A program made the position numbers and the translations under genes. 43,805 nt of DNA, taken from Amoebophrya sp. A120. Lineage: Eukaryota > Protista > Dinoflagellata. Under the pieces are notes generated by a model. The model was not told where the DNA came from. It worked only from the letters and a program-made list of their open reading frames with translations, and searched no databases. Shown here in pieces: positions 1,029-43,805 of this stretch (positions are counted from its first letter, which is position 1; each line of letters begins with the position of its first letter). The stretch is taken from positions 19,055 through 62,859 of the forward strand of contig CAJINV010000043.1 in NCBI GenBank assembly GCA_905178155.1. The letters are read 5' to 3'.

Positions 1029-4000
1029 ATGATGAGCAACGGCGGGGCAGCCGGGGGCGATAAGCCCCCGGGCGACACCAGCGCTGAACAACCGTCGGCC
1101 GCTTCTGTTTATGGGATAGTTCTCAAACGTTACATTCTCAACTGCTGCATGATTTGTCATGCAAAATTGACATCGACATGGACATCTACACGATGAAGTG
1201 CTTTTTCGCATGACATATTTTTGATGGCCCAATCGGCATGAAAATCATTTCCGAATTTGTAATGCTAGAGGCGCAAGCTCCCCGTCCCGGCTTCCACTTT
1301 TGCTATTCTTGCATCAAAAACCCATGTTGGAGCCGTTGAGATCGTAAACTTTGAGAATCGCATACTATTGCGGGACGATCAGCTGCAAACAAAATGAAGC
1401 GGAAAATGGGCGCGAAAGAAGGAAAGAAAGCGGGGAGCAGCAAGCGTGTTGTGGAGGAAGTGGAATCTGATGGGGTAAGGGAAGAAGTGATGACTTTTTG
1501 TTTTATGCAAAAGATGGAATTTTTTGTCATGCAGATTTCCAACAGGTACGGGATTGATGTATAAGAACTCCAACTGTAATTTGTAATGCATTTTTGCAAG
1601 TGGAACTGCTCTTACTCTATTCTACAAAAAATTCAGGTTGGCGAAGATGAGTGGAGGGCGGAAGAACTGGATAAGAAACAAGAGTATGCTCTGCAAAAAT
1701 ATCGCACTTCTTCGTCGCGAAAATTTCATAACAATCTTCATGCACAAGAAATCAGCTGGATTATGTCTGTGTCATGCATACAAGAAATCATTTATGAAAG
1801 CAGATCTGTCACACGGCACGACGATTTATCCATTGACAACTTTATTGTTTTCGTATCAATTGACGGTATTTTTGCACAGAATAAAGACGTTCCGAAACCT
1901 TTGGTGACAGACTTTCATACGCTATCCTGTGCAAGAAAAGTGCCTTCTTTGGAGGTCCTCAAGCGACTACTAGCACCGCTCTGTTAGTAAGTACACAGGT
2001 CTAGTTGATTGGCTACAAAGAAATCATTCATGACACGAACTTGATGGATCCTCGAGAATGAAAGTTACATTTAGCCGTGACGAGGTACTCGTACTACTCT
2101 TAGCGTATAGCTTCCTGGGCTCCTTGTGTACTATGCAGCCGTGCTGCATTTTTAGACAAGCGCAATTGGGGACCTCCACGAGGGTCTTTTTACGCAGGAT
2201 GCATGCGGGCGCTCTACGCGCAGCGACGCTGGGTCATGACGGAATCGGGGGCGGAGAAGAAGAGTGGGATGCAGGGACTTAAAACCGAGTGCGAAAGGAT
2301 TGAAGCGGAGGAAGGAAGTAAAAACCGAACAAATGCTGCGCAGAAGGAACTGGACCTGTGCCACATGTACCTGCAAAATATCGTGGGAAAAAAGTGTTAC
2401 AGTTACACACCCTGATGCAGACAAGCAAGACAGACGACCTCTGTCATGCAGGAAATGCTTGCCAGCGTGAGCGTCATTTCATTCGTGTTTTCTCTTATAC
2501 TCTGCGCATCACAGGTTTTCTTAGGCATGTCGAGCAACTTTGTGATGCAGAAACTCCAACAAGCGTGTAACTGTAACACTTTTTTCCTGTGATACAAAAA
2601 CATCAGAGGTTGCTGCCCGACGACACGGATGAAACCAACGCGGACGGAGACCACGGGAAAAGCGTCGACCAGCACGACAGAGCCGTCGGCGACGCAGCTG
2701 GTGCTCCTTCCCTCGGTGCGGAAAAGAACGAAAGCAAGGACTATTCCGCGGCGCATTTTCCGCAGGAGGCTGCAGCAAGAACGTCTTCAGCTGGTACTAG
2801 CCAAGTAAAAACAACAAACGACCAGCCGCTTGGGTCAACATCATCGGCCAGTGCTACAACTGGGACGTTTAACAAGCGAAATCTACTGACGACTTCCGCT
2901 TGTTCGCCAAGTTTCAGTTTGTTTTCACCACCGCTGCATTCAGAACGAGTACGAGAGCCAAGCTCGTTTTCCCCGTCGAGGCGCGTCGTGCCACAGCCGA
3001 GATCCTCGTCCTCGGCTTCAAGCGGAACTACGGTATCAACTGCAAGTATGTCTGGGTCTGGATGAATGTATAGATTTCACATGCATATTTCCATTGACCC
3101 ATGAAATGATGCCTGTAATGCATGACCTATGCATGACCTAGCGTCACAGATTTTTACAGGGCTTATTGATGCACCTTCCGCATGAGAAATAATTCTTTGT
3201 CCTTTTAGCACAAACAGTACACCTCCTGCTTGTCATGCAATACAAATTTTTTTGGAGTTCAAAAACAGCATGACAAGTCGCAATCCTCCAGACCAAGACA
3301 CTTTTGCGGTTGATATACGGGTTTAGTCGGCAACTTTACCACGCCTGCTCCCAGCTCCAGCGCGATCGCAAATACCAGGATGTTAAAGCAGTCGATCGAA
3401 CAAACAAGTACAAACCCGACGGTGGACAAGCAAGGCGGAGAGAAAAAGACCGCAAATGTTGAGTCGTCCGATAGTCTTCTTATCAACAACAAAAGTGCTG
3501 TTGCTCTCGGCGGGAAGAAGAAGCTTCCCACCACCACGACCGGTAGAACTAGTACCATTTCCACGACACAGAACCTTGATCCAGCTCCGGATGTTGCAGC
3601 TGGAGAAACTATGTCGACGCTCAGGTGGATACGACACTTCTCGCCCTTGCAACAACCAGGACGAACTACACCCGGCGATGGTAAAAACAGCAGTACCACT
3701 GTGAATGTGGTCGGAGCTGCTGCCGCGGCAACGACGAGCAAACCAGGTGGTCAGCAGCACGGTGCGCCATCTTCTTCTTCCACGAAGAACGCTGCAGTGG
3801 CCAAAAATAGTACAGGTGGCGCCACTAGCAGTGGCGTCCAGGTGAACAAACAATCTCGCGAAACAAGACTCCGTGAAGCCATGAAGAAGTACCGCAATGC
3901 TTTGGAGAAGAAGAAATATCAAAATGCAAAACTCCCCCTGCTCCCCGTACTAAAACGGAGATTTTTATAGCATGATTTGTGAACACAAATCAGGTTGTCA

Positions 4001-7000
4001 TGCCAGAAGACGAAAAATAAACGCGGACTGTAATTCTGGCTGGCGTTGGAATAAACCTTTGCATCTTCAGCATGGCAGAAGACAACTGAAAATTGGAAAC
4101 CGCATGACAAATTTCCTGCTTTTCGGGCCGCAACTGCTTCTCTTGGCCCTCGAGCAATACAAGTCGATTTGTGAACGCAAATCCAGCATCACGAATGTCC
4201 TTTTCAGTATGGGGAGGGAGGACTTTTCCTCGCCATAACACCACGGAGCATGAAGATGATCGTGAAGGCCGCAAAGTAGAAGCACCCGCCCCTGCACAAG
4301 ACGATGACGAAGCTAAGAACGCCGTAGCGCAGCAGGCGAAGATGAAGAACAAGGGCATGAAAAAAGCGCCGATGAAGAAAGCCACTGCAGCTGCTCCCGC
4401 GAAACCGAAGTACGACCCGGAGCTGCTGGAACTATTCGAGATACTAAAGTGCAACTATTTAATATTTGGGTCAGGAAGCGTGGAACGTGTCTTGCGTGGA
4501 GTGGATTCTTGTGAAATCTGTGTTGCATGGGTATGACCAACAAAAACGAGCGATCCTTTGTCAGGCAAAAATATGCAGCTTTTTATGCGCACTTGGCATG
4601 AGGCATCGCCTCCCAGCATTGCAAACTTCCCAGACCCAGACCTGTTTGCAATGCATACGAAGAGAATCAGGAGAATTCGATGACCAACGCGGACAAAGAC
4701 GAACTACAGAACATTTTCAACCTGCTTATCCCACTGAAGAAAGCTAGCACATAATTGCATTTGAAGTGCGTAGAATGAACAATCCACAGAGAGGTCCTCC
4801 GTCGTGGTTTCTTGTGGGCTCGTCCGTGGCATGCTAGTCAAGATGTTAGTGCGTAATACGAATTTTTTTGTGTCGGTATTTTTGTCGCATGTTGATGCAG
4901 AGATGAGATTTAGTGTGCTAGGTTTTTCATCCTGGCGGATAGTGCTCAAAACTTACAGAACAATACTCGGTGATATGACGTCCTCAAACGTTACTACACT
5001 CTCAACTGTTACATGAATTTGTAATGCAAGAAGGGCCGCAAAAGAGAAAGAACTGGAAGAAGGAAGATTGCGCCTTTTATTGCATATGCACATTTTTGAC
5101 GGATTCTAGTGCCATGTAGCCGCGTCGAGAAGTTGTCATGCGAAAAAGCCGCGGTCGTGTGCAGAGCCAGAGTACTAGTCTTTTTGCATGACAAGAAACC
5201 ATGTAACAGTTGAAAACGTAAAGTTTGAGAGCTCCATAGAGGAGACGAAGAATGAGGATCTGCACCAGTGGAAAGACATGAAAGAATTTGAAGATGATTT
5301 TGCGTCGGAGGTAATATATGTTCTTGAAGCAGAGCAGATACAGTTGTGTGGTTTTACTTTGTTGTCACTTTGTCCTCAACCTACTTTACACAAAAGCTTT
5401 GTAGTTGTACCGAATGCAGAAAGATCCAGAAATGGATGACGATTTCACCCCCTTGCAAAAGAAAAATTCAAAACTCCACCAGGTCGAAAAGCTTAAGGAG
5501 CTGCTGGATAAGCAATACCCCACTGAGTTGAAGATAGTTTGTCGTACCTGCGATTGCGATTTTTGACAAAACAATTCATACGAAATTGTAACATCTGGCT
5601 GCTAGTGTGCAACATTGGCAAAAGAAGGTGAAAGAGGCAACTGTGTAAGGCCTTAACCCAGCAACGTTTGCATGGCAAAAGAATGGAATACCGAAACAAC
5701 AATTTTTCCGCTTTGATTCAGATAGTGCAAAAATTGAGATCGCAGTTGAGACAACAAAAAGTTACGTTGCATAGCAGTAAGCTCCGCAAAATCACGAAGG
5801 CGTTCAATCAAGAGTTACCAAATGCAAGTATGTCTGGGTCTGAATCTCTCCTGCGCAAGATTCAGGTACAACAAGATCTGGCATGATGCATGAATACAAG
5901 TCACAAGCTTTTTTGTCTTGCTGGAAGCCGGGTTATCGGGCGGTAAATACGAATGAATGTGTAGCAATTATTTCGATTATCCTCGCGAAACTTATAATTC
6001 TCTCATGTCGTACACGAGGAGGCCGTCCTGCAATGCAGATACCAGCAACACAAATTCCGAGACCCAGACATATTCGTATATGCATAAACGTTCAAAGACT
6101 GCAGAAGCGCTCTAGCCGAGATGATAAAAATATCAAATACGAAACATGTAGTTGTTTGGGTGGGACTGGAAATAAAGTGAATAAGATTTATCATGCTCAG
6201 CGGGACTACCGGAATCAAATCTGTCATGCACGTTAGAGCAGCGTGTCAAGAAGTTCTTGAGACGTCAACTCGAGCGCCCTCCGGACTTTTCATCGCCAGC
6301 CAGCATTACAAATTTCCAGATGAACGCCCGAACACACATTTGGATTCAATAGATGATTCGCGACTATCTGATACGGACAGATGTCTGGAACGCGAAGCAA
6401 GCGGAACGCGCAGCAAGCGCGAGCGGTGAGAACGACGAAAACCGCAAAATAAGAAGTGAGGTATTGTTTACAATGTATAGTTAGAAGATTCATTGTGGTT
6501 TTTACGTACAACTACACCCACAGACGAAAGCAAATCATTCAGTCACACCGTGCATGACAAACTAGCTTTATCGTTGTACTTCTCGCCTTGATTTGTGCTT
6601 GAACGGAATTTCTTCTACTCTGCATGAGAAAAAGATAATACTCAAAAGAAAACAAAGCTATCAAAAACAAACCTTTGACATTCCAGGCCAACAGCCGAAA
6701 GCCTTCCTCGCCCGACGGTGTTGCCAAGAAAAATACCAAATCGGCTAAAAACTTGTCGAAGAGCGTCGCTCCGGCGGTGGTGCACAGGCGGAAAGATGAC
6801 AAACTACCGGCGCAAGAGCCAGTAACATCTGCAGCCTCCTCTTTTTCGGGTTCTTCTCGCGTTGTAGTTGGCCCGGCTGTGAGTAGTCTGCTCCTCCCGG
6901 CTTCTTCTAGCGGGGCACCTTCAGCGTCCTCTCGGAAAGTGCCGGCTGCTGTTGTGGAAGAGCAAGAGAGCGAGGAAGATGATGACGTAGTGGGCGAGAA

Positions 7001-10000: not shown

Positions 10001-13000
10001 AAATTTCGCATTTGCCCCACAGCAAAACGAAGACAATGACAACGTTCGCGGTGGTGCCGGTGCTCCTTCTAGTAACAGCGGAAATCTCGCCCCGCAGCAG
10101 CAAATGCAAGACGAAGGCAATGAAGACAACTTTCGTGGCGGTGCAAATGCTTTCAGCAGCAGAGGAAATAATTTCGTGCCCGAGCGAGGCGAAGAGAATG
10201 AAGAGCAGCAAGCCCAGGATGAGCAACATTTGTCCACAGGTTCAGCGTCCTCCTCTCCAAGACAATACCAACCAGACGGTGATAAGACCGACGAATTGCC
10301 GAGGGTGAGCTGTACTACTCCCAAGCGCCGTAGTACATCCTCCCGCCCAAACTCGAAGCAGCGTGGAGTTTCCGGTACCTACGAAATGCAGGGACCGTCT
10401 CCGGCGGGAGAAGAGCGGACGGAGAGTATCGTAAGGAAAAATGATCCCCCCTCCCCGTATCAAAACGAAGTTTCTGATGCTGGATTTCCGTACACAAATC
10501 AGATTTGTCTTGCAGTACTAGGGGACTGCAGGCATATGCCAAGCCTGAGCCGAGAGGCTTTGCCGTAGGCGAGCAGCATGGCAACTGTCTATTGCTGCAA
10601 GCTCAACAGCATCTTCACAAACCGCCTGCATAATGCGGCGGAGTCTCTGGCTTTGCCTTCTTGCAAGACAGACAGGACTTGTGGCCCGCAAATCTGCATC
10701 GCAAATTTTCAAACCGATGCACTTTCCACATGGGGAGGGGGGATTTTCCCTTACGATAGAGAGATACCGGGAGAAAATGAGCTTGACTCATCGTAGTGAG
10801 CAGTCGAGAAAGCTCGAAAAGGAACGGCTACAATATAAACTGCTGAGGTGTTACAATCTCAAACGCCACAATAGAATGCGGAAATCTGTGATGCAAGAAG
10901 TGCATGATCTAACATACTCCCACAGGACTGCGCATGACAAGTTTCACAGCACCAAACCGCACTAGAATCTGGCGAAATTTGTATTGCAGAAAGTGGAATG
11001 CTGTCCGAGTCTGTCATGCTCGTCATGCAGTAAGTACATGTACAAAATCCAGACTCTATTGTAACGTTTCAGATTGTAACGCTTGAGCAGGTCATATAGA
11101 AAAGCAGAAGTTGCGGCGCGAACGGAAAGAAGCAAATTCATCCTCGTCGCGGGCGAGCTCGAACGACTCCAGTTTTGTTCAAGACGGGCGAGGACCGCCA
11201 GCACAGCATCTTGAACTACCTGGTCGCAGGAGTACCAGCGTCGCGGCGTCTTGTATGCACAATAAAAAGACCCAACATCTCTATCCATTTTATGCATGAC
11301 AAACACAGGCCCTGACGCATGTTTTGCATGACAAAGTGGATGCTGGGTTTGGCCCTTTTTTTGTGGATAACTTCCTCCTCTCCGGAACAAGAACCGGGCC
11401 GTGCGTCCGATGCCGTCGTGCCAGAAACGCATATCAAATGCAAATATGTCTGGGTCCTCTGGGAGATAATTGCGAGATTTGTCATGCTAGTCTGGCATGT
11501 TGACTCTGAACTCTGCATTCCGTGGCCGCGAAGAGCAGCTCCTCTTGCCTGTCATGCAAAATCGCAGTTTCTCATGCGGAGTACGCAACTCAGAACCACG
11601 GCAAAACTTGTCATGCCGGGCAGCGTATAATTACAGGCTTTCCCTATTCCCTCTCTTGCGCCACAAGTTGCCAGACCCAGACATTTTTGCAGATGATAAG
11701 GCAGCAACCAGTGCAACAAACAGCAACCCTGGGAGTAGGAGCAACAAATGGCGCCTATGGCGCTCTCAGCTGTTGCATTCTCAACTGTTACATGAATTTG
11801 TGATGCAACAATGGCGAAAGCGACAGGGGGGAGCTTGCGTGTCGTGCATGACAGATTTGGTACAGATTTAGACGCTGTCTAGCAATTCGATAATTTGTCA
11901 TGCAAAGCAGCTTGGTCGCCTGGTGGCTTATGGCCATTTTGCATGACAAATCATGTAACAGCTGAGAATGTAACGTTTGAGAACGCCATAGCGCCAGGTG
12001 GCTCCCCGGGTTCGAACTACCATGGGTCGTGCAACAATTACAAGGACTCGCGGCAGCGGCAGCGTCATCTTCTTCTTCTTCGCAGCAGCAGCACCAACCC
12101 GCTATCCTGTGCTGAAGTATCGTACTCGTATTGCAGTCATGCATTACAAATTTGCCTTCAAATAAGGTAAATCCGCATTACAACTTCTCTTTCTCATGCT
12201 GAGGAAATTTGTAATGCACTTATACGAGTACGATACTTTTGCAGTTCATACCCGTAGTAGTACAGCCCAATAATGCATCTTCTTCTACGACACCAGGACC
12301 AGGCGTCATCAGGAATAATACAACGCCTGTGGTGAAAAAAGAACCCCCAAAAGCTCCCCGCCCTAGCCTTCAACCGGTGTATGACTCTTGGCACAAGAAC
12401 CACGAATGGCGTGAGAAAATATGCACTTGCGAAAGCATCGTAGTACCAGTAGTGGTGTACTATTTCATCACGTAGTTGTACATAAAATTTGCTCAGCATG
12501 ACAAGTGGAACTTGTACTGTTGGTTGTAGCTTTGCCTTTGGAAAAAGACTTGTGTTTATGTTGCCTATTATCCTGAGTAAAAACGTACCCACACCAGAGT
12601 TGTCATGCAGATTTACCATGACAGGAACATTTGTGATGCGCAACCCCGTGACAGGCATTTTCAATCGTGTTTGGGAACTTAAATGCTGTAAAGAGGATCA
12701 GCAGATCGATTTGTGATGCGGCTTCCCTTGCTAACTTGCACTACCTTACGGACTGAAACTTGTCATGCGTGACTCCCAAAGCTCCTAGGTTTGTGTTGCA
12801 AAATTGTGTAAATGAAAACTGGTTTTAAACGCTGTTTCTCATAGATCAAAATAGAAAAAATGAAGAGGATGATAAGAAAAAGCCACGAAAGCGATCAAGC
12901 GAGAAAAAGGGCCACAATACAAGGAAAAGCAAGCAAATTCTTGCCACGATCGGAAGAAAAAGGAAAGGGAAAAGAGAAGAAGAGAAAAGCAAAGAAATTA

Positions 13001-16000
13001 GGTCTGATTCACGCTGAATCCGCATGAAAAACTGGCTTTCTTACTACTTTCAAGAAGCGGAGCCACGGCTACGAGCACGTTAGGAATACGGATTTAGCAT
13101 AAGCAACTGGAAAAACTAGACTGGAGATGATGAATCTGTAATGCGTATTTGTGGAATTCGAAGTAGTCTTAGATGGTGTTCGAATTTGATTTCGGTATGC
13201 TTGCGTTTGAAAAATAACCTCTCCATTTCGAAACTAGATCCCACAATTGGTGGAGAGCCTGGGCATAGTTCGACTCAGATGCAGCGCATACCTTTACCGT
13301 TTTAGCTAGATACCCTACCCCTATGGCCTCGGAGAACCGAAAGAAGAAAGACGAATACGCGCAAGAAGGAGAAACAGCACCGCGGAAGGAAAAACGACTA
13401 CGACATGGAGCGAGCTGCATGACAAGCAGTGAGTAAAAGCCTCAGCTTTTTTAGTAACAGCTACTGGAGACGAAGACCTGCTTGACTGGGTGTGAAGAAC
13501 GCGCGCTAGATTGATAGGACGCAACAAACAATGTAGAGGACGGGACTAAGTACGACGCGAAGCTTTGGACGGAGTACAACCGCGCAAAGAATGTGGCTTG
13601 CGAGATGCTGAAAAAAGACACACTGGAAATCGACAAGACCAGTCCCAGAACCGGAAACCGCCTTCGTACGTTTTAGACCACGGGGAAGATTTGTTTTTAG
13701 ACCGCTGGATATATTTGTTTAACGGGACCTCAGTCGCGCTATAAAGTTCGCGGGAACTAGTTCGGCAAAACGACGCGGCTGGGGTACGTTCCAAGATTTG
13801 TTTACGGATTCGGGTTTTATTTTGACAACGGGATACGATTTACGATTTTTATTTACGGATGCGGGTTTTACGGTTAAGCGATGGCAGTGATGATTTTCGA
13901 TTTGTTAACGAGCAGCAGAACACGATCGAGATTTGAAGGCGCGGAAAATTCCGGCAACAGTAAAACAAGAACAACGGGGCACAGCTACAGAAGACGTCGA
14001 AGGGTTGCTTGCTACTTTGCTTAGCCCACTAACGAACCGGGAGCGACTCAACAAGACGGACCACTGTAGGCTGCCTACCAGTTCACAGATTTGTAAGCGA
14101 TGAGAAGACTCGGCGTTGTGTTTTTGCAGGCGATCACGGGTGCGCTGGCAGCGTTTTCAATTTCGAACGCAATAGACAGAGGCGCTTGCGCGCAGTAGTA
14201 GTTTTCCAGGGTTTGTTTCGAACAGTGCGGACAGATGAAGCAAGACCTCCTCCTCTCGCGGCAGCATGAGGACCTGGCTGGGGAAACCACAGATAGCAGT
14301 AGACCGCGTCTCGATCGTTCTCTTGTTTCCGACGTGATAGGGGTTTGCTCCTGGCGCAGTAGTAATAGCGCAGCGACATTAGTGGCTGTCCAAGATTTGC
14401 TTTTCGCCACGCACAGCAAGCGAGACACGAAGTAGTGCGCACCAGTAAACTCCGTTCTATTTCCGGCCCAGTTTCAGAAGCAGTTCGTAGACCTCGGCAA
14501 AGCAGTCACGTCCAAGATTGCAGTTTTTCATCCTACAGAAACCGACGCACGCGGTACAGAACCGGCAGAGCAGCAATAGAAGCAGCAGTAGTAACTAAAA
14601 GAGGGAGACTTTTGTAGAGGCGAGGACACTGAATTGAAGAGAAGACTTTCTTTAGGCTTTCGCAGTTCAAGCCTGCGATAGAATGGCGCCCAGCAGGCAC
14701 CAAGGTTGTACGATGAAGAACAAGGCACCAGACTCAAGACCCCGACCCTCCCTTATTTGTGTTCGCAGCACCGGTAGAAGACGATCAAGATTTTGTGTTC
14801 GAAGTTCACGATGAGAAGATGAAGAAGTTTCAGTCAGGGGGCGTGTAGTCGTGTAGCGACTTGGCTAGTGACTGCAACTTCTTCCGGATGGTGTTCTCGA
14901 TGTGATTCAAGATTCCGATGCAGTACGGGCTCCGTTATCGACTTTCAGTAGCTAGCTGACCTACCGGGATTCAAGATTTTGATTTTGGGTTCGGGATCCT
15001 GACTTGTGTTCGCGGTTTCAAGCTTTAATGCTATCGGGCTCCAGGAATAACTAGCTACCGAGGACGGGCGTTTTCGATTTGTGTTCGGGATGAAGCAGGA
15101 ACACTAGATGATGGTGGTGATGAAGATTTGATATCGGGCTTCGGGATTTTAGGCACTAGTAGATCTTGGTGAAAAGCAGGCAGGCTAGCGTAGAACACTC
15201 GGGCAGAGGTGCGAAAACACCGGGAGAACAACAAGAAGAAAACCCGGGACAGCACTAGAACACGGGCACAGACTACGAACGCAAAGCAGCAACAGAAAAG
15301 CAAGAGCAGAAACCAGGACGCAGCGAAGAGAATAGCAGGAAAGACCACCGACACGAACACGGAAGACCAGGAACAGGAACACGGACAAGCAGACAGACGG
15401 GGAACGGAGAAGACGCGAATGCAGAAAAGAGTACGGGGGCGAAGGACGACTTCGATTCTAGCGAGGTGTAGCAGACAGAGACGATTTCTAATTTTGACGC
15501 GGGACCAAAGAAGAACGTTTGGAACACAGGACCCGGAGTAGCAGTGCAGGTTTTAGGAGAAGTAGAGACGGAGACTAACTCTGAGGGCCAGCAGTAGTAA
15601 TGACGAAGTGCGGAGCAATGGTTTTCGGAAAGTAGCAGCGTAGCAGTAACAGTTACGGCCTCAGGGTTTTTACATTTCACGGATGGGGGCGCATACAAGA
15701 TTTTGGAGCACGGGAATGACGACAAGCCGAAGAACATGCGGAGTTTGCAGATACCGGCACAGCAGATCGTGGCTTCGGTCCAGCGCAGTGGCAGCGCGAC
15801 GTTTTGGATGAAGACGACGACCTTCGTATGGCGTTAGGGGGCAGTGCCACCTGCCGATGCTGGGAAGATTTGTTTTCAACCGACGGCAGTTTCAATTTCG
15901 TCTATGATCCGACGCGCCGAAGCAGATGTTCCCGACGACCAGCAGATAGGTTTCTGCACGACTTTGCCACTTCCCCGATGAAAAAATTGCTTCTGTACCG

Positions 16001-24000: not shown

Positions 24001-27000
24001 GGCCACTTTAAGTGGGAAACGGCATGACAAATCGCCTACAATTTTGGCCGCAACTGCGTCTGTTGGCCTTCTAGCATTACGAGTCGATTTGTGTACGCAA
24101 ATCCAGCATCACAAATGTCCTTTTCAATATGGGGAGGGGGGATTTTTCCTCACAATAGGCGATGAAAGAAGATTTAACGCAAGCTGTGCGAAGGATGAGG
24201 AAGTATTTTCTCGACGCCGTGGAAAACTGGACGGACGAACACGAAACTTCCATTACCGAAACCCAGAATAAGCTAAAAAAGGCGTTACGCGATTTTCGCG
24301 ACGTGTGCCGCGCAATCAAGATTTCCGAGCGCGAGGTGCCTCCGCTGTGCGAGTCTGTTACCAAAGCGTGCACGCATTATCCTGTGCAAAAGTATCTGAT
24401 ACTCGTATTGCAATCATGCATTACAAATCTTCTGCTAAAGGTAAATCCCCATCACAAATTCCATTTTTCATGCTGAGGAAATTTGTAATGCATTTATACG
24501 ACTACGATACTTATGCAATGCATACGCCTGTGGTGATAGGGATATTCCGAACCCAGATCGACTGGAATATGGAGTATGGAGTTCTCAACCGTTACATTCT
24601 CAACTGCATTACATGAATTTGTCATGCGAAACTAGTACCATCATCATCCACAAGATCAAGCTGCTTCGCATGACAAATTTGCGAAGGCGGGCTAAACAGC
24701 ACCTAAAGCTGCGCGAGATTTTTAATGCAATTTTTGCACCCTGTCTTCCCCCTTTCGCTTTTATTGCCATTCTTGCATTACAGATTCATGTAACAGTTTT
24801 GAGAATGTAACGTTTGAGAACACCATAGGGAGAGCGCAGAATTTCGAGAGGAAGTGACACGGAAATATGAGGAGTTCCGCCAGGAGGCGGGATTGTCGGA
24901 GGAAAGTCGTTATAAACTGCAAAAGTATCCGATACTTGTGTAAATGCATTACAAATTTTCTTGGCATGAGAAATAAAATTTGTAATGCGGATTTAGCTTC
25001 AGAAAATGATTTGTAATGCATGATTGCAATACGAGTATCAGATACTTTTGCACAGGAGCGTCGTGCGAAAACCCCCGTGAACAACGAGCCGCAAGAAGCT
25101 GGTACTGCGGCGACCGTGAGCAACAAGAAAAAAGAACTCCACCCGGTCGTGCAGAGCGTGTTTGAAGCGAACAATGAGGATGGCAAAATGGAAATAACGC
25201 CGAAGAAGCAGGTAGAATTCGTGGAAGCTTTCGACCGGATTATATGCAAGAAGAAAACTGTGGAAGTGTAAATTTGTGTTGCAGAAGAGGATGCAAGACA
25301 CCAACACTTGTCATGCTGGACATGCATCAGAGGTTCTTCTCGTAAAGTGTTTGCACCGATACCAGCAATACACATGAGAGGTTTATTTCTCTGTCATGCA
25401 GGGCCGAGCAAATTTGTGATGCTGTTCCTCGAAGAAAGTTACACTTTTACATATTTTTTTTCCTGGATAGATCAACCGATACTTTCACAAAATCGTAGAA
25501 GGGAGCCCGGAAGATACAGATCTCGATCGAAACAAGGACTTGTTGCGGGAAGCGAAAATCGACTTTGACGCCCTGTTGGAGGAGCATATCAAATGCAAAA
25601 ATGTCTGGGTCTGGAAGGATGTAACTTGTGATCATGCTATCTCTGGATTCTAAAAAAATCTGTATTGCATGACCAGCAAGAGGGGTCGGGTTTGTCCTAC
25701 GTGGAGAGGGCATTTCTCATGCGGTAGAGGTATCGCAAAGCCCTCCAAAAATCAGTGATGCTACGGCATGCATCACAGACATCATGGCTCATGCAACATA
25801 TGCATGACAGATCTAGAAATCTTCCAGACCCAGACACTTTTGCATTTGATAACGCACGATATCGAGCAACCGTCCGAAAAGTGGCTAAAAGCTGAAAGAG
25901 CGTGTGATGATGTGCTGAAGGGGGAAAAGAGGACCTGCTTTGACTCGGAAGCCGAGCCGGACTCTGACGTCTCACAGGAAGGGCGCGCGGTGGAGAACGA
26001 AACGAACTTGCAGAATACGGTATGAACGACGTAGAATTATTGTTCCTTCCGGTATCATATTGGTCGAAAAAACGGTATTTTTGTGTTCTACAAACCATGA
26101 TCCGTGAAAAATCTACATCTCCATTTACGACGCAGCTGTCGTTGCATTTAGATGAACCGAAAACGAGAAATCATAATCAAAGTCCATACCAAAATCGTTT
26201 CCCTCAGGTCCAGGTGCGTGCGGAGTCCCCCGTGGTCGCCCCCCGCTCGGCTGCGCAATTACTCCTTGCCCCTGCTGGCAGTTCCAGGTCACCGTGTGCG
26301 GATTCGTTCGAGGCCTTGAGACAGCAGGACCAGGAAGATAGTAACGGCGAAGAAAGAAGTGGCGCCCAGGACGGGGAAGTACAAGGGCAACGTTTTGAAG
26401 AAGGTCGTGCTCCCGCGCAGAACGACGAGTTGGAGATGAACGAAGGACAAGACCACGGTGACGCCGCACAAGGAAAAAAGGCAACCAAGATGAAGAAGGC
26501 AAAAAAGATGAAAAAGGCGAAGGAAAATAACGAGAACAACACACCCGCCGCTCTGCTACAGGGCAACGCAACGTCCTCTAGCACGATGGCCGGTCAGGGT
26601 GCGGTGGCGGCGCGCGGAAAGTCATCGTCATCGTCCATTTTTAGTGCGGTACTGAATTCTGGTTCCATGTTGAAGGATTTCAAAAATGATCTCGTTCTCA
26701 ACATTTTTGCAGTACTTACAGTCTGCAATTCATCACGGTAATTACTTCGATGTTTAGAAATGTCACAGAAACAGAACAGAACTCTTATTTTCTGGACCGG
26801 AATTCAATCCAATTCGTATAATTACACCAATATCAGGTATCGCACGGCAAGAATCTCATGGCGACCGTCCCTTCGAGCAGCAGTGTCGAACAGAAAATAT
26901 GAGAATGCACAATCCCCCACGTCGTCCCCCGGATCTGTAATGCATAAACAGAAATATTAGGAGCATCGGCAACAGAAAGAGTACAGTATGCGCATTACAG

Positions 27001-28764
27001 ATTCACACAGGAGTATAGTGCTGGTTGAGCTCCCGAGCGACCCCTGTCATGCAACACTCACAACAAAAAAACGGTAAATCTGCCTGTTGTCATTGACAAA
27101 CGAGGAAGCGGGGGGGCGGAGGTTTGTACACTCTCATAGAGGAAAAACAACATCGTGAACACCACCTTCAGTGCCGCGAATACTACCACGCCGCACTCGA
27201 CCGATGCCACCATGACCACTGCTCTGTACGGCGGTGGACAACTACAAGGAACTACGAAACAAAAGAGGTCCCAGATGAAGAAGCTTACCGCCCCTTGTAC
27301 CGCAAAGGCTCCGTCGAAAAAGATGAACCCGTCCACCTCTGTCACCAACGGATCAACTACGAAGTTGTCTGCAGCATCTTCTACCAACAGCGGTACTACA
27401 AAGGGCAAAACGCCTGTGCGGAAATCTGGTGGGAAGCAGCCGGCTGCTGCTAGCTTCTTAGTCGCACCAGCACCGACGAAAAGCTACGGATCATCTTCCT
27501 GGGACACGCCGAAAGTGATATGAGAGTGTACAACTCCCCCTTCCCCTCATTTGTCATGCAAAACCCCAAATGCAAATCCAAAACCAAATGCTCCACTGTG
27601 GCACTGTTTGCACCACAGATTCCTGTCGTGACACTGTTTGCATCACAGATTCCGGATGAATGATCCCAAACAGTACTACAGTAGGCGCATGAGTTTGTCA
27701 TGCACAGGCTTGACATGTGGTGCTGTTTGTATTGCTGTTCATGCAATACAAATGAGGGGGAGGGGGGGTTGTGCACTCTCATAAAGGGTTCAGCCAATAT
27801 ACAAACCACCGAGAAGAACTGGCGGTAGCAGCGGTGCATCGGAGGACCTGCCGGTGGTATAGTAAACCAATTTTTGTCAATCATGTATGCACAGAGCGTA
27901 TAGATGATGAAATTGAGATCTTCGTCATTTATTTCCCATGAGCAGACGGTGTGTCCTCTGTAGGAACAGTGGCTGAATATGAATATGAAATTTATTCTTT
28001 CAAGAAATAAAATCGAATCAGCATTCCTATCCGTCGCACACCTCCGGTAGCCTCGTCGAGGGTGAGCGGTCGCGAATATCAAACGCAAAAGTGTTTCAGT
28101 CCTCTGGAAAGCCGGGGCTTGTAATGCTGGTCGCACATTTCGCACATTCCCGTGAAAAAAAAATCCACAGTTCAGCATCACAACTTTGCGTTTCCAGAGG
28201 ACCCAAACACATTTGCAATGCATAGCGGAAGATCCGGTACCAGGATAAGAGTCCGCATATGAACTGCAAAAGTATCGTACTCGAATAAATGCATTACAAA
28301 TTTTCTCAGCATGAGAAAAAAAATTTGTATTATGCTGATTTGCCTTGACAAAGAAATTTGTAATGCAAGACCAGCATTTATACGAGTGCGATACTTTTGC
28401 ACGGGATACCGCAGTTGTCCTTTGGTACGAACACCAAACACGGTATCCTGTGCAAAAACGTCCCCACACCAGAGTCAAGCTGGGAAATCTGCTAGACAAA
28501 TCTGTCAGCTTTTGCTGCTGCGCATGACAAGTTTGGCCTCGCAGTGTAATCCTGTTTAGCTTGTTCAGCAGCATCACAGATGTAGCATATCATGCTGATT
28601 CTAGCATCACAAATCCCACAACACGACTAGAGACTGCTTCTCATGGGTCTCCGCATGAGAAGCATTTTCAGCATGCAGATTTGCATTACAACTCTGGTGT
28701 GGGGACGTTGTTACAACTGATACAGGGAGCGACCTCCTCGTCTAGCCGCGCGCCGTGGTCGTAA
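21068..28764 (+). CDS. Gene 2: multi-exon hypothetical protein (K-rich, low complexity), ~19 non-canonical introns; ends approximate
   Basis: ATG 21068 (MAAQKDKG). In-frame joins include KHFT-EQNGK and QSVF-DAYEKRKTSSSMKMTEA-MKEDLTQ. Region 26000-28100 only partly resolved. Confidence 0.65.
21155..21329. mobile_element. Introner-like element (diverged)
   Basis: TATGGGAGGAAAAA ... AAATTTCCCCTATA; DR ATTCA/TTTCG. Confidence 0.45.
21943..22112. mobile_element. Introner family B
   Basis: TATCCTGTGCAAAAGTATC ... GATACTTTTGCAGTGCATA; perfect DR CACTG; frame restored. Confidence 0.9.
22184..22452. mobile_element. Introner family A
   Basis: TATCAAATGTAAAAATGTCTGGGTCT ... AGACCCAGACATTTTTACATTTGATT; perfect DR GGGGA. 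Confidence 0.9.
22499..22734. mobile_element. Introner family D
   Basis: TATGGAATTCCCAA..TCTCAACCGT ... ACGGTTGAAAATGT..TTGAGAACTCCATA; DR poor. Confidence 0.7.
22821..23089. mobile_element. Introner family A
   Basis: TATCAAATGTAAAAATGTCTGGGTCTGGAA ... TTCCAGACCCAGACATTTTTGCACTAGATA; perfect DR TGGGG. Confidence 0.9.
23138..23404. mobile_element. Introner family A
   Basis: TATGGCTTGCAAAAATGTCTGGGTCGGGAAGATT ... AATCTTCCCGACCTAGATATTTTTGCAGTTGATA; perfect DR TTCCC. Confidence 0.9.
23515..23790. mobile_element. Introner family A
   Basis: TACCAAGTGCAAAAATGTCTGGGTCTGGAAG ... CTTCCTGACCCAGACATTTTTACATTTGATA; perfect DR TTTCG; frame restored. Confidence 0.9.
23847..24157. mobile_element. Introner family F
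   Basis: TATCACAAAGAAAAATCCCCCCTCCCCATA ... TATGGGGAGGGGGGATTTTTCCTCACAATA; perfect DR GGCGA; frame restored. Confidence 0.9.
24378..24524. mobile_element. Introner family B
   Basis: TATCCTGTGCAAAAGTATC ... GATACTTATGCAATGCATA; DR CGCAT/CGCCT. Confidence 0.85.
24575..24827. mobile_element. Introner family D
   Basis: TATGGAGTTCTCAACCGTTACATTCTCAA ... TTGAGAATGTAACGTTTGAGAACACCATA; DR TGGAG/GGGAG. Confidence 0.9.
24911..25059. mobile_element. Introner family B (inverted sibling of 24378-24524)
   Basis: TATAAACTGCAAAAGTATC ... GATACTTTTGCACAGGAGC; perfect DR GTCGT. Confidence 0.85.
25243..25469. mobile_element. Introner family E-like
   Basis: TATGCAAGAAGAAAA..AAGTGTAA ... TTACACTTT..TTTTTTCCTGGATA; DR GATTA/GATCA. 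Confidence 0.65.
25587..25851. mobile_element. Introner family A
   Basis: TATCAAATGCAAAAATGTCTGGGTCTGGAAG ... CTTCCAGACCCAGACACTTTTGCATTTGATA; DR GAGCA/ACGCA. Confidence 0.9.
26898..27138. mobile_element. Introner family G
   Basis: TATGAGAATGCACAATCCCCC ... GGAGGTTTGTACACTCTCATA. Confidence 0.7.
27519..27783. mobile_element. Introner family G
   Basis: TATGAGAGTGTACAACTCCCCCTTCCCCTCATTTGT ... ACAAATGAGGGGGAGGGGGGGTTGTGCACTCTCATA. Confidence 0.85.
28077..28224. mobile_element. Short introner, family A-type TIR
   Basis: TATCAAACGCAAAAGTGTTTCAGTCCTCTGGAAA ... TTTCCAGAGGACCCAAACACATTTGCAATGCATA; DR GCGAA/GCGGA. Confidence 0.8.
28258..28408. mobile_element. Introner family B (reverse orientation)
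   Basis: TATGAACTGCAAAAGTATCGTACTCG ... CGAGTGCGATACTTTTGCACGGGATA; perfect DR CCGCA. Confidence 0.9.
28444..28722. mobile_element. Introner family C
   Basis: TATCCTGTGCAAAAACGTCCCCACACCAGAGT ... ACTCTGGTGTGGGGACGTTGTTACAACTGATA; DR CACGG/CAGGG. Confidence 0.85.
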
Positions 28765-31160: not shown

Positions 31161-31240
31161 GCGGCCGAATTTCTGGGGCATGGGGGCGGCCGAATTTCTG
31201 GGGGGTGGAGGCGAGCGAATTTCTGGGGCATGGATGGGGG
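31161..31240. repeat. ~25-bp G-rich tandem repeat x3 inside a GC-rich island
   Basis: GCGGCCGAATTTCTGGGG(C/G)... three copies. Confidence 0.75.
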
Positions 31241-32499
31241 AGCCGATATTGATCGCCCAGCAGGTGCGGCGCAAGTCCGCGGCCGCTGCCCTCGGCAGCC
31301 TGGCGGATGCCGCCGCCGCCGGCTAAGTACCGCGCCGGCTACTTGGCCGGCCGAGCCTCTTCCCTGCCGGCCCGCCCCCCCGGGGGCCCTGGCCGTACAC
31401 GCCCGCGCGCCCGCGGCGCCGTTTGCCCCGGTGGGGCAGGGTAGCAAGCCCCGCGCGCGCCCCGGCCTCAGCTGCCGGCGCGGGCCGGGGAGGGTGCGGG
31501 CAAGCCATCCGCAGTGCAATCGATTACACGATGGCGCCAAAGAAAGTCGCGACGAAGGAGATCGGCACGTGACCGGGGAGCGCGCGAACAAAGCCCGCGA
31601 AAGCGGTCAAGGGCGCCGCTCGAGATGTTTGAGGACGCTGCGAAGCCGGCCTTTCTCCGATCAGTTCTTTCAGCAGGGCGCCAGGCGGTGCCTGCCTGGG
31701 GCCAGTCGGCCCCTTTGTACCCGGGCGCCGCGCCGGAGTTGTGCGTGCGAGCCCGGGGCCCGTTTCCTTTCCACGGGCCGGCGCCCCTGCTGCCCCAAGC
31801 GGCCAGGCGCGGCGCCGCCCTTCGCCGCCGATGGTGTTGCCCCCCGCCCGGGGCGCCCCTTTCGCGGGCGGAGCTTGATTGGGGGGCCCAGGCTTTGTTG
31901 CCTTCCCGCCCTTGCTTGGTTGCCGCTGGGCCGCTGAGGTCGCGGGCCTGCGCCGGTGGCTGTGGGTTGCCGTTGCGCGGAGATGAAGCGGCGCGCCTCC
32001 CGCACTTGGCTGCGTGGCCGGTGCCCGTGGATAGTCTTGGGCGCCGCGGTGCGGTGCGTAGCGCATTCGCGACTCGCAATGCGGAGCTCTCTGCTGAGTA
32101 AGAAAGTGCCTCACCGAGGTACAGCGCTTCAATCGCCGGCTGCGGCCGCGGAATGAAAAACTCTCGCGCGCCCCATGATAATTGGGGCCCCATGACAACG
32201 ATGCTCGTTGCCTGTCCTTCTGTGTTCGAGTTCGCACCGGCAGAGCCGTCTGATGATCAGGCCGGTGGCCATTCAATACGACGAAAGCCTCATATTTTGC
32301 TTTCTTTCAACGTGTCGCTTCTGGCTGTCGAACTTGAATTGTGTTATGCGGCTAGCGCATTTTTGTTAGGCGGTATTTTGCGGTTACTTATAGAAATAAC
32401 ACGCCACGATTTTTTACGCCAACTGAAGAACCTGGACGAAGGCATAAGATTCCCGTATGACGAGGAGTACTTAAAGCTTTCACATCAAACTCGATCATC

Positions 32500-35400
32500 A
32501 TGGCAACATCCGGCTCATCTGCGCAAAGAACAACGGGAGTGAGCGACCAGCTTCCCTTCACTCACCCGGACAGCAGTGAGGGCCACGCGACAAACACCAA
32601 CGCTGCGGACGAGCCGTCCGTTGTTCCGCCGGAAGTAGGAGTCGACAGCGACCTGGAACAAGCAGAACAACGGGAGCTCGATCCTGCCGTATTTTCTAGC
32701 CGAAGCGCTGCTGCATTTCTCCCGACCCTGTTGCAGCACGACCAACCGGAAGGAAAATTAGAGGGTGTACCACGAGAGAAAGAATCCTCCAAGCTCGTCC
32801 AAGCGTCGTCCGCGATGGGCCGTAGGCTGTTGGAGCAGGACGAGAATCCGGCAAGAAGCAGTCCCTTCGCTTATTTTCCCACCAGTAGTGCTACTTCTAC
32901 GTCTACCCAAGTACAACAACACCACTCCCGTGCTGTCACCAGCCTGCAGCAAAGCGGTGGGGATCAGGAGGATGAGATATCAGTACCCCGCCTAGAAGTC
33001 GGTGAACAACAGGACAACTCTGGTGCTCCGTTGGTGCAGCTATGCATTGCAAAAGTAACGTACTAGTAGTAATTGCATTTATGCATTACAAATCTCTTTC
33101 TCAAGGTAAAACAGCATTACGAATTTGATTTGTAATGCTGGACTAATTTGTGATGCAATTTATACGTAGTACGATGCTTTTGCGTTGCATAGCAGCAGGA
33201 CCCTGACGGTAGTTACAGCTCACCGGCGCCGAAAGACGGGCGGAAAGACGGTGAAGAGTCGTCTTCTTCTCACGACCAGTCAATGCCCTGGTCGGCGTTT
33301 GTCGGGTCGGACGGCAAGCCTCTGTTTGGTCGTGATACGGCCGGTGACGAAGACCACGCTGCTGGACGAACTAGCTCTTCGTCGCCGATCGGAAACTACG
33401 ACCAGTACGTTCACACGCAGAAGCGGTACAACAATCATTTTTGCGGTGGGAGCGGGGAGCGGGTGGAACCGCGATCTGGATCACAGTCGCCGTCGCAGTA
33501 CACGTTATCAAATGCAAATATGTCACCTGGGTCTGGAAATATTGTGATGCTGTTTTTGCACGACACGAGAAGTTTGCGATGGACGCTTTACTAGCATCAC
33601 AAGTTTAGTAGAGAAGAGTCCCAATGCCTAATCCGCATTACAAATTCCCGTTCTCGGAGACAGAAAATGAGGCAGCTTTTGCTGCCTATGCATGAGAGAT
33701 TTGTGTGTGTTGTGAAATGCGCATGATCGATCACAAGTTTGCAATCTTCAAGAGGGTCGTCCAGGAGACATATTTGCAATGCATATCCGTACTACTCCGG
33801 TGATTCCCAACTTGCACCACGACAGGCAGCAGCAACTGCGGGAGCGGAAGATGCGGGGCAGTCCGTGGCCTTCGAAAATTACGATGTAGGACATGATATC
33901 AAATGCAAAAATGTCTGGGTCTGGAAGATTCCAAGAAACCTGTAATGCTGTTTCTGGATTCTGAAAAAATTCGTGTTGCATGACCAGCAAGAGGACTCCA
34001 GTTTGTGCTACGCGGCGAGGGCATTTCTCATGCGGCAGAGGCATCACAAAGCGCTCTAAAGATCCGTGATGCTACGGCATGCATCACAGACATCATCGGT
34101 CATGGAAAATATGCATGACAAGTCTAGAAACCTCCCAGACCCAAACATTTTTGCATTTGATACATGACGCCGGGGACGACGACAACACCCCCAGCAGCAC
34201 CTGCACAGCGCTCCACCTCCCGGACTACTGGACCTCGACTTACACCTATCAAATGCAAAAGTGTCTGGGTCTGGAAGAGTGCAGGAGTTTGTCATGCAAA
34301 TTTTGCATGACCCATGAGGTCTGTCGTGATGCATGCTGTAGCATGAGAGATTCAGCGAGGGCTTTCTGATGCTCATACCGCATGAGAAAAGCCCTCTCCG
34401 CGTAGCAAAAATTGCACCTCTGTTGCTGTTCATGCAATACAAATCTTTCATAGAATCCACAAGTGGCAACCTTCCAGACCCAGACATTTTTGCAATCCAG
34501 AACACCATCGACACGACAAAATTCGAACACGTCCGCTGGGAGATCTTCGCCGCGTTTGAATATGCTCTGCAAAAGTATCGCACTCATACTAATTGCGTTT
34601 CTGCATTACAAATCTTTTTATTAAGGGAAATCCGCATGACAAATTCCATTTCTCATGCTAAGGAAACTTGTATTGCAAGTTGTACTAGCTCTAGCACGAT
34701 GCTTTTGCATTGCATATTGAAAAGCACATGCTGAAATTCTGGTTTCTCATGCTGAAGCCGGACGTGAGGAACGCGAAAAAGTGGTCGGACCGGTACATCC
34801 CGACATCGGACATGATCACGCAAATCGTCAAGCACCACGTGGTATGAACTGCAAAAGTATCGTACTCGTAGTAATTGCACTCATGCAAGACAAATTTCAT
34901 TTTTGAGCTAAATCAGCATGACAAGTTCCGTTTGTCATGCTGAGGAAATTTGTGATGCGTTTATACGAGTACGGTACTTTTGCAATTCATAAGTCGAAGA
35001 ATTTTTCGCCCCGACCGCGGAATTCGGTATCATGTTGCAGGAACAGACCTTGGCGTTTTTGCAAGAGGGTAAGGAGGAGCTGTTTCGCCAAGAGCCGATG
35101 GGAAAGTCGATTTTTCCGAAATCAATCATCGGCAAACTGCTGCGAGTCCAGTTGGAACGGGTTTGGAAGGACAAGAACTACGATTTTTTCGCGCAGAAGC
35201 TGTTCAACAATGTGAATCTTTTTTGCGACAGCGAATTCGACTTCGAGGGCAACTTCTTCGGGGACGGTTTGTCAGGCGGAGTAGAGGACCGGAAAAACAG
35301 CACGACCACGACCTCTCTGACTTATGGAGTGCAAAAGTATCGTACTCGTATAAATGCATGACAAGTTTCCTCAGCATGACAAATAAAATTTGTAATGTGG

Positions 35401-36338
35401 AGTTACCTTGAGAACAGAATTTGTAATGCATGACTGCGATTAGTGCGAGTACGATACTTTTGCAATGCATATGACCTCCGTCCCTGCGACGTTTCAGGAG
35501 GAGTGCGTCGGCCACACCTTCCGGAGCTCGTGTCTGCATATCGTGGCGAAAATTTTTTTGCAGCAGGCAACACCGTCAATTTGTCATGGTCTTCTTCATG
35601 CTTGGAATGCATAAGCTTTGAACTACTGTGTCTATTGGTATTGTATCTGATTTTGCATGACAAACTGACAGTGATGCCGGTTCTTTCCTGGTCGATACTG
35701 CTGTGGCTGAAACGAGAGGCGTGGCGGGTCGTGAAACAGCAGCATTTATCAATCGCAAAAGTACAACTACCGCTTGTAGTTCCGATAAATTTTCAATTGC
35801 AGTACTTTTGCATGACAGACTTCTTCTCTATACCAAAATCTGCATGACAAATAGTCTATTCTGACTTTCGAAAAACTTTCTGATGCAAACGATGATACTT
35901 AGCATCCGATAGTTGTACTTGTGCAATGCATAGCGAAGGCTGCGATACGGAGTTACCGAGAAGAAATTCTACCGTAATGACAGCTGCGGGTCAACTGGAG
36001 GGGTGAAGAAAAGGAGGGTGGGGTGGTGAACCACCGCCGAAATCGAGATGACCTTTTACGGCAAAATGAACAGAAAACATCGCACAAGAAAAACTTCCAT
36101 CAACAGCGAAGACATTTTTTTCCACCGCGCCGGGGAGCAGAACAAAGCTTCTGTACTTCCGTCTCATCGTCAACCCACTACATCAGCAGCAGTGCATCGG
36201 GAAGAGAAACAAAGAGTCACCACATCAACAGCTGAAGCGAAAAAAACGACAAAATTATTCCCGTATCAGACTTTTTCTCCCTTGTTCAACATTATGCAAG
36301 ACGGGGGAGGACCACAAAACCAGAACTACGAAAGTTGA
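32500..36338 (+). CDS. Gene 3: multi-exon hypothetical protein, at least 8 non-canonical introns; 3' end approximate
   Basis: ATG 32500 (MATSGSSAQ); join LVQ-QDPDGSYS links ORF 32500 to ORF 33283; later exon includes QEQTLAFLQEGKEELF. Confidence 0.65.
33041..33191. mobile_element. Introner family B
   Basis: TATGCATTGCAAAAGTAACGTACT ... AGTACGATGCTTTTGCGTTGCATA; perfect DR GCAGC; frame restored. Confidence 0.9.
33506..33785. mobile_element. Introner family A-type TIR
   Basis: TATCAAATGCAAATATGTCACCTGG ... CCAGGAGACATATTTGCAATGCATA; DR CACGT/TCCGT. Confidence 0.8.
33897..34162. mobile_element. Introner family A
   Basis: TATCAAATGCAAAAATGTCTGGGTCTGG ... CCAGACCCAAACATTTTTGCATTTGATA; perfect DR CATGA. 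Confidence 0.92.
34247..34501. mobile_element. Introner family A (opposite orientation to 33897)
   Basis: TATCAAATGCAAAAGTGTCTGGGTCTGGAAG ... CTTCCAGACCCAGACATTTTTGCAATCCAGA; perfect DR ACACC. Confidence 0.9.
34561..34716. mobile_element. Introner family B
   Basis: TATGCTCTGCAAAAGTATCG ... CGATGCTTTTGCATTGCATA; perfect DR TTGAA. Confidence 0.9.
34843..34991. mobile_element. Introner family B
   Basis: TATGAACTGCAAAAGTATCGTACTCGTA ... TACGAGTACGGTACTTTTGCAATTCATA; DR CGTGG/AGTCG. Confidence 0.85.
35323..35471. mobile_element. Introner family B
   Basis: TATGGAGTGCAAAAGTATCGTACTCG ... CGAGTACGATACTTTTGCAATGCATA; DR TGACT/TGACC. Confidence 0.9.
35747..35932. mobile_element. Introner family B-like (diverged)
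   Basis: TATCAATCGCAAAAGTACAACTA ... TAGTTGTACTTGTGCAATGCATA. Confidence 0.7.
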
Positions 36339-43755: not shown

Positions 43756-43805
43756 CGATCTGGGCTTTCGATCTGGGCTTTCGATCTGGGCTTTCGATCT
43801 GGGCT
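43756..43805 (+). repeat. 13-bp tandem repeat (CGATCTGGGCTTT)n running off the window end
   Basis: ~3.8 perfect units. Confidence 0.9.

Follow-up and report, generated by a model that had tools for sequence, protein, structure and literature searches.

We analysed a stretch of 43,805 nucleotides from Amoebophrya sp. A120 (contig CAJINV010000043.1, positions 19,055 to 62,859 of the forward strand; hereafter the window), in which co-oriented genes are interrupted, at intervals of a few dozen to a few hundred bases, by elements of 110-330 bp. These elements start with TAT, finish with ATA, are flanked by 5-bp direct repeats and match the published A120-type introners of Amoebophrya. A prediction made from the letters of the window (the original prediction) had held that a short internal motif recurs across unrelated families of terminal inverted repeat (TIR) elements and could be a common protein-binding mark. 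The main new result of our analysis is that the copies of this motif are helically phased. The array is a real functional element, unusual in being common to several TIR clans, strictly phased and present in short canonical introns, and it probably represents sites for a putative double-stranded DNA-binding protein that aids the transposition of 110-320-bp non-autonomous TAT…ATA introners. The array and six of the introners are listed here, with site orientations in brackets.

1110..35932, unstranded: motif-site array, about 3-7 sites per TIR introner in two orientations; 200 position weight matrix (PWM) sites in 58 hand-set intervals
10834..11096, unstranded: family-10 introner; sites 10886(-), 10932(+), 10979(-), 11011(-); steps 46, 47, 32
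18153..18431, unstranded: family-4 introner with a perfect 26-bp TIR; sites 18184, 18263, 18345, 18376, all (-)
24575..24827, unstranded: family-7-type introner, 253 bp; sites 24619(-), 24668(+), 24775(+); skip in spliced contig 258 = 253 + 5
27519..27783, unstranded: family-6-type introner; sites 27551(-), 27640(+), 27695(-), 27727(-), 27743(+); outermost sites 32 bp from either end
33897..34162, unstranded: family-1 introner, 266 bp, TATCAAATGCAAAA…TTTTGCATTTGATA, with 5-bp target-site duplication (TSD); sites 33940(-), 34025(-), 34041(+), 34081(+), 34113(+)
34843..34991, unstranded: family-0-type introner, 149 bp; sites 34885(+), 34916(+), 34932(-), 34950(-); steps 31, 16, 18

Introner families and their termini

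Related loci were collected with a 20-base TIR stretch as bait, which gave 134 metagenome-contig loci (the listed rows share one assembly prefix). After removal of overlaps, the data comprised 662,604 bp including the window, with 619 kb from related loci, a sample that over-represents family 0, the source of the TIR bait. The loose TIR finder returned 25 false candidates on a shuffled window, and its 761 candidates were cut down to family members and stringent singletons (608, rising to 685 after rescue with hidden Markov models). The elements sort into 15 families of 4-219 members and, by eye, into about seven TIR clans. With the motif masked, the interiors of the family consensuses gave no BLAST match at E<0.01 between families, a weak test because masking breaks seeds; unmasked, four pairs of consensuses align over 70-270 bp (F1-F3, 274 bp at 70%; F10-F6; F14-F2; F12-F2), and a TAT-N7-AAA end is common to all families. 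Family interiors are far more different from one another than the motif is, but to call the families unrelated, as the original prediction did, is too strong.

In an end matrix of 556 elements, the first three bases are T (.97), A (.97) and T (.96), and A occupies positions 11-13 at.81-.90; the finder demanded five of six terminal bases, so that TAT is partly built in and AAA is not. A perfect 5-bp TSD flanks 318 of the 459 exon-inserted copies that could be aligned. Insertion occurs in either orientation (72 versus 70 for family 0), and in the consensuses of families 4 and 11 every site has one orientation.

Positions 11-13 (AAA) are also the best kept of the TIR, with a divergence of 0.02-0.03. 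Within families (loci L001-L134), the TIR arms covary at positions 14-28, with 168 double compensatory changes against ~27 expected under independence, a count that includes uncorrected subfamily structure; this argues that pairing or symmetry would outweigh sequence there. Some introners are enlarged to 0.8-1.4 kb by nested GC-rich inserts without the motif (L022:6184-6998, L006:505-1608, L004:2129-2941 and L059:2085-3440), and such swollen composites could pass wrongly for autonomous elements. Only 7 of 410 exons between two introners are shorter than 28 nt, most being 30-90 nt, which suggests a lower limit on exon size or a zone closed to insertion; the lengths of these exons show no 10-11-bp period. 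The window also contains a ~144-bp direct repeat at its start (1-300), a 13-bp tandem repeat at its end (43745-43805) and GC-rich motif-free stretches at 30600-32200 and 37500-39500.

A degenerate motif is enriched in introners and conserved within families

On the two strands of the window, GCAT.ACAAA has 76 matches and GCAT.ACAAG has 27, while GCATBACAAR has 102 against a mean of 1.0 and a maximum of 4 in 100 dinucleotide shuffles, an enrichment over a composition-matched background. The pattern GCATBACAAR was picked post hoc and element copies are non-independent, so family-level tests were added. By hand-set class, 90 of the strict matches lie in TIR elements (12,846 bp, 7.0/kb) and four each in GT-AG introns (1,516 bp; at 1523, 1580, 6552 and 21517), in a long terminal repeat (LTR) element (at 13417, 16179, 16326 and 16418) and in intergenic or other DNA (at 29904, 41367, 41397 and 42047); the remaining 11,081 bp of the window, mostly exon, have none. 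A strict match is present in 47 of the 58 hand-set element intervals and a PWM site in 56. The recurrence in multiple copies and two orientations, and the sites in GT-AG introns, the LTR interior and some intergenic DNA, are therefore as originally predicted, with all coordinates correct within 1 bp.

Gene-finder classes gave strict densities of 7.75/kb in elements (1,012 in 130,518 bp, with a match in 505 of 556 elements), 0.79/kb in GT-AG introns of at most 400 nt (17 sites in 14 of 118 introns), 0.12/kb outside genes and 0.03/kb in exons (9 in 269,679 bp). The predicted scarcity in exons holds as a count, but exons are at chance level rather than depleted (73 sites with a PWM score of at least 8, versus 89.5 in shuffled sequence). 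The motif derived from 76 consensus sites, (T/A)GCA(T/A)(G/C/T)A(C/G)A(A/G)(A/G)T, spans 10-12 bp and is wider than the one first described, and with related loci included its broad form is GCAWBA[CG]ARR. Its middle base had been taken as free; A is avoided there, with counts of G 638, T 501, C 297 and A 17 (17 of 1,453) over the 662,604 bp.

In all 12 families with at least eight members, motif columns diverge less (0.03-0.16) than the interior (0.17-0.32); the conservation test left out three of the 15 families, with 4-5 members each. The ratio of motif to non-CpG interior divergence averages 0.32 (Wilcoxon p=5e-4, 12 families), the approximately threefold gap persists against non-CpG and base-matched control columns, and in 11 of the 12 families motif columns diverge less even than the terminal 30 bp. 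The excess conservation within families that a binding site had been expected to show is thus present. The middle base varies like the interior yet avoids A (G>A 0.024 versus 0.112 in controls), and within-family changes at degenerate positions head towards the cross-family consensus, mirroring the cross-family matrix. This pattern is the trace that sequence-specific binding would be expected to leave.

Motif sites are phased with the DNA helix

A spacing analysis, which had been proposed as a check on the motif, revealed helical phasing. Distances between sites of the same orientation cluster at whole turns (cosine at 10.5 bp of 0.53) and those between sites of opposite orientation at half turns (-0.48). 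These values were reached by 0 of 500 replicates in each of three nulls (random position, jitter and orientation shuffle), and likewise for distances of at least 36 bp. The best period is 10.46 bp (family bootstrap confidence interval (CI) 10.38-10.56); the cosine falls to 0.23 at 10.2, -0.10 at 10.0 and -0.08 at 11.0. With one family per TIR clan, phasing is 0.39-0.61. Sixteen further elements outside the families follow the same trend (0.37, -0.39), several of them being composites of known families and so not independent.

Neighbouring sites are most often 16 or 31-32 bp apart, and steps of ~18-20, 39-43, 49-55, 74-76, 80-86 and 93-98 bp agree with 10.5. The phasing extends to the element ends. 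Among the outermost sites, the 21 that point outward are three, four or five turns from the end, at distances of 31-33, 39-43 or 51-54 bp (R=0.81, p~1e-6). An RNA helix has 11 bp per turn and is therefore excluded by the 10.46-bp period, so that double-stranded DNA, rather than RNA, is the likely form in which the motif is recognised. We infer that proteins sit on one face of the double helix, in register with whatever binds the ends.

Removal of introners from transcripts

Joints in contigs presumed to be RNA (X3 and X1) connect the sequences flanking introners, chiefly in one gene.

21068..28761, +: host gene, predicted span; a single X3 contig skips 13 listed introners and two GT-AG introns

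For this gene 13 element joints are listed and 27 further joints exist, and gene 1 contributes three more. Each of the 16 element joints equals the element length plus 5 nt, and all are compatible with a cut 1 base before TAT and 4 bases after ATA. At 21154-25855 of the window and in the related loci, the junctions show no clear GT/AG preference (first base G in 156 of 490). Gene 1 is thinly covered, with its GT-AG introns at 1475 and 6461 lacking an RNA joint. A joint at 7630/8676 was discarded as an artefact of repeats, since it connects two members of a single family. Raw RNA runs X8-X10 placed 90, 17 and 0 reads, with no joints.

The gene finder was trained on these data with motif positions neutralised and element joints built in. 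Its first pass was biased to window genes, so it was retrained; it recovers both RNA-seen GT-AG introns. Some introns remain merged, and false exons appear in GC-rich DNA and the LTR element. Gene finding used 71 of 131 sequences, omitting 60 under 2 kb.

GT-AG introns and other DNA with sites

Four GT-AG introns of the window, two of them with observed joints, and a site pair elsewhere are as follows.

1475..1636, +: GT-AG intron, 162 nt, predicted from the reading frame; sites 1523(-), 1580(-)
6461..6686, +: GT-AG intron, hand-set from reading frames and merged by the gene finder into a longer intron; site 6552(+)
21452..21563, +: short GT-AG intron, 112 nt, joint in X3; one strict site, 21517; without TIR
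26020..26207, +: GT-AG intron, 188 nt, joint in X3; neither strict nor broad site
41367..41406, +: pair of strict sites 30 bp apart, outside predicted genes

With the exception of the two with joints, GT-AG introns here are predictions. The strict motif occurs in 14 of the 118 and the broad motif in 26; the other 104 have no strict match, so the motif is not the real identity signal of introns generally that it had been suggested to be. A general intron-identity or intron-definition signal is further disfavoured by the absence of strand bias, by single sites decaying about like the interior and by the lack of phasing to canonical splice sites (pooled outward-pointing sites, cosine 0.02-0.22, p>=0.07, small samples), and is not supported. 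Same-orientation pairs within GT-AG introns are likewise unphased (12 pairs, cosine 0.03), and no specific 5'-3' pairing was found in these introns (own versus other partners, p=0.82).

Motif-positive short GT-AG introns are located among introners and short exons, and motif-positive GT-AG introns have more introner neighbours (1.35 versus 0.92, p=0.002), a pattern that resembles old remnants. The positive short introns show no family homology beyond patches of 18-38 bp, and four further GT-AG introns do show family remnants.

The predicted intron at 1475-1636 contains an internal CAG/GTA at 1545/1546 and may be two back-to-back introns or recursively spliced. Predicted GT-AG introns generally show no polypyrimidine tract; their last 30 nt are A/C-rich (A 0.38, G 0.12) and their first 30 T-rich, donors are mostly GTAT or GTAC, and few are under 100 nt.

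The LTR element and the search for a mobiliser

12804..17314, +: LTR element nested in a family-4 introner (12569-17359); PWM sites 13136 and 17204 (in the LTRs), 13417, 16180, 16327, 16419 and 16495

The LTR element has two identical 443-bp LTRs (TG…CA), the first followed by a stretch resembling a primer-binding site. It shows a 4-bp AAAT duplication, lacks any open reading frame (ORF) above 186 aa and is young and non-autonomous. The TIRs and 5-bp TSD of the surrounding introner are intact. In the 3' interior of the LTR element, three of four sites are in phase (147 and 168 bp apart).

Ten long candidates for an autonomous introner proved to be nested insertions, neighbouring copies or unrelated, in a sample of less than 1% of the 115-Mb genome. 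The nearest lead to a mobiliser is A120 family 38, which carries the table label 'Ginger; 5-bp TSD, TA/TA termini' in a paper whose text says that Ginger termini are absent (PMC12130899; cited papers are drawn on here in excerpt). In viral contigs two TIR patterns had 0 matches, and motif-pair patterns had 4 and 3 matches with no further enrichment, which were taken as chance. No tRNA or Rfam matches were found.

Orientation and timing of selection

On the mRNA, site orientations are balanced both in elements (486:526) and in GT-AG introns (9:8), and the 5' and 3' halves of elements, like both TIRs, are conserved alike. TSD mismatches (0.082 per position) served as a post-insertion clock. Per mismatch, the decay slope is 0.0074 for the motif core (CI 0.0008-0.0145) and 0.0047 for the interior (-0.006 to 0.015), and 2.1% of bootstraps reached uniform protection after insertion at the overall ratio, 0.18; a nearest-neighbour analysis does not separate change before insertion from change after it. 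The absence of strand bias and the near-neutral post-insertion decay therefore favour, moderately and not decisively, selection through transposition, on copies that go on to transpose.

A proposed phased protein array and its alternatives

Enrichment, within-family conservation and helical phasing together give good support to the originally predicted shared, putative protein-binding site. In a transposition role, the copies of the motif would bind one sequence-specific protein on double-stranded DNA, and bound copies would share one helix face. Their bends would add up and curve DNA whose length is close to or under the persistence length, and the curved element would bring the two TAT-N7-AAA ends together in a transpososome. 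Only copies with an intact phased array would keep copying, which would reconcile conservation along the lineage with near-neutral decay of single sites. The protein may be the DNA-binding domain of the transposase itself or a co-opted host protein; the evidence leans towards a host or domesticated protein because the sites span about seven TIR clans, short GT-AG introns and the LTR element. The sites in the latter two suggest either such a protein or a second role.

Several observations weigh against a role in transposition. The motif is not confined to introners, unlike a transposase-bound subterminal repeat: the LTR element has seven strong sites, some intergenic DNA also has sites, and short GT-AG introns are rich in them, with 35 sites of PWM score at least 8 in 38 introns shorter than 165 nt versus 16 in 71 longer ones (0.92 versus 0.23 each). 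Site number correlates negatively with GT-AG intron length (Spearman -0.37, p=8e-5; the 165-nt cut was read off the data), and density at the same threshold is 9.2/kb in GT-AG introns of 100-139 nt, compared with 19/kb in introners and 0.27/kb in exons. Eighteen short introns with a strong site show no TIR remnant, their end scores and best inverted repeat equalling those of motif-negative introns; only one of them has AAA at +12, and they carry 1.1 near-perfect sites each. A scan of 96 of the 195 listed long ORFs turned up no transposase or integrase domain, and no transposase in A120 was found by Farhat et al. (PMC7789003, as excerpted). The nine inward-pointing outermost sites are phased less clearly (R=0.62). 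The TSD clock is weak, the interval of the interior slope spanning zero, and redundancy among 3-7 sites could mask host selection on the whole array. Exon-inserted copies keep sites better than other copies (0.044 versus 0.053, no significance test), and sites are kept slightly better when the mRNA reads TTTGTCATGC (site-stratified odds ratio 1.18, p=0.054; the unstratified difference of p=9e-4 shrinks to this value once stratified by site).

Some of these observations would fit the main alternative, a host DNA-binding protein that acts at the DNA level to mark introns that are hard to splice, namely GT-AG introns of short length and the non-canonical introners. It could do so, for instance, through polymerase pausing or splicing-factor recruitment in a lineage reported to lack U1, with introners succeeding by carrying its sites. 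The site-rich short introns, their near-perfect sites without TIR remnants, the sites in the LTR element and the service of a single motif to TIR clans with differing, covarying TIRs all speak for such a mark. We nevertheless consider it rather doubtful as the explanation of the array, given that most predicted GT-AG introns have no strict motif, that sites are phased neither to canonical splice sites nor to each other within these introns, that single sites decay near-neutrally after insertion, that GC-rich inserts of 0.5-1.2 kb in four introners have only 0-1 sites, that motif-positive GT-AG introns lie near introners in a remnant-like manner, with four others bearing family remnants, and that all but two of these introns are predicted. 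Of the three roles originally offered, the subterminal or transposition site is therefore the best supported, intron definition falls as a general rule and a host or chromatin role stays in play through the near-perfect sites of short GT-AG introns. The transposition and host-mark readings can hold together: a host protein might coat one DNA face of short or non-canonical introns, licensing their splicing or transcription, and TIR families might have adopted phased arrays of its sites, gaining a bending cofactor and immediate spliceability at once, a combination that we advance tentatively.

Action of the motif in RNA, either by pairing of opposite copies that lengthens the terminal hairpin or through an RNA-binding splicing factor, is very unlikely: the copy at 34843..34991 does fold into a long RNA hairpin (z = -9.1) that pairs two opposite sites, and the weak orientation effect on conservation points the same way, but the period excludes 11, the motif sequence is fixed across families while TIR arms covary, insertion occurs in both orientations and two family consensuses have one-orientation sites. 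The step peaks at 16 and 31-32 bp and the relatedness of several families would suit sites without present function, left over from a common ancestral tandem repeat with a 16/32-bp unit or kept by a cold spot of mutation. This reading is largely refuted, and we give it hardly any credence: conservation is position-specific, leaves the middle base free and comes with changes that have a direction, other steps fit 10.5 (e.g. 18-20, 39-43, 93-98), and the threefold gap survives non-CpG and base-matched controls. Equally improbable is a nucleosome-positioning or intrinsic-curvature signal without a sequence-specific protein, for although the motif finishes in a short A-tract and is helically phased, five near-invariant bases lie outside the A-tract, A-tract distances within elements show no 10-bp comb, and the period is 10.46 bp, whereas that of nucleosomes is ~10.2.

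The conserved phased site is a ready bait for its putative protein, with built-in controls in the middle A and in 5-bp phase shifts. The protein recovered with it might be a transposase, hidden or domesticated, or else a chromatin factor of the host, whose lineage has unusual chromatin. If the relation between site number and GT-AG shortness holds genome-wide, it would amount to a type of intron mark, at the level of DNA, that we did not find described. If the combined reading is true, introners could have invaded exons in their tens of thousands with neither a recognisable transposase nor U1.

Comparison with known systems

The carrier elements resemble the A120 introners of Farhat et al. 2021 in their TAT + 7 nt + AAA inverted repeats, junction direct repeats (3-5 nt) and non-canonical splicing (PMC7789003), and recurring sizes of 106, 149, 209, 252-260, 278, 305 and 320 bp in the family table of Gozashti et al. 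2025 are found here as well (PMC12130899). Both the mobility of A120 introners (no transposase) and their splicing (U1 not found) are open according to the former (PMC7789003). The internal motif, its conservation and its phasing are not described in the excerpted text of either paper, and motif words are absent from the supplement text searched (38 of 58 A120 family rows, exclusive of figures). No description of the motif was found in the excerpts of PMC9860276, PMC11282704, PMC11453091 and PMC12005148.

Among known transposons, CACTA elements (En/Spm) are ruled out by the TAT termini and 5-bp TSD, as CACTA elements have CACTA termini and a 3-bp TSD. hAT elements, with a TSD of 8 bp, are ruled out because the skipped length is always the element plus 5. 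The sites of apicomplexan ApiAP2 proteins (TGCATGCA) and the Oct4-Sox2 composite (TTTGTNATGCAAAT) are look-alikes in their cores only (TGCATG; TTTGTNATGC), and A, the middle base typical of Oct-Sox (GCATAACAAA), is avoided in the introner motif.

The placement of sites at whole turns can be likened to the 12/23 spacing of V(D)J signals. IHF and HMGB bind with loose or no sequence specificity. As DNA-bending accessory proteins that aid transposases, they offer a parallel in sites whole turns from the cut end and in a role in drawing the ends together, which here is inferred (PMC6900584); the introners differ in having 2-7 specific sites per element.

The closest likeness in arrangement is to subterminal repeats, such as the Emigrant motifs bound cooperatively by Lemi1 proteins in miniature inverted-repeat transposable elements (PMC1636448), the repeats bound by Hermes BED domains (PMC10368747) and the TnpA motifs of En/Spm (reviewed in PMC2613891). 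In the excerpts of these papers, as here, a short motif lies in two orientations within the TIRs of elements that need a protein in trans, and is conserved above its surroundings. The introner motif differs in that no cognate transposase is known, that it is common to about seven TIR clans, whereas CACTA motifs diverge even within soybean, and that it is spread over the entire element, strictly in 10.5-bp register.

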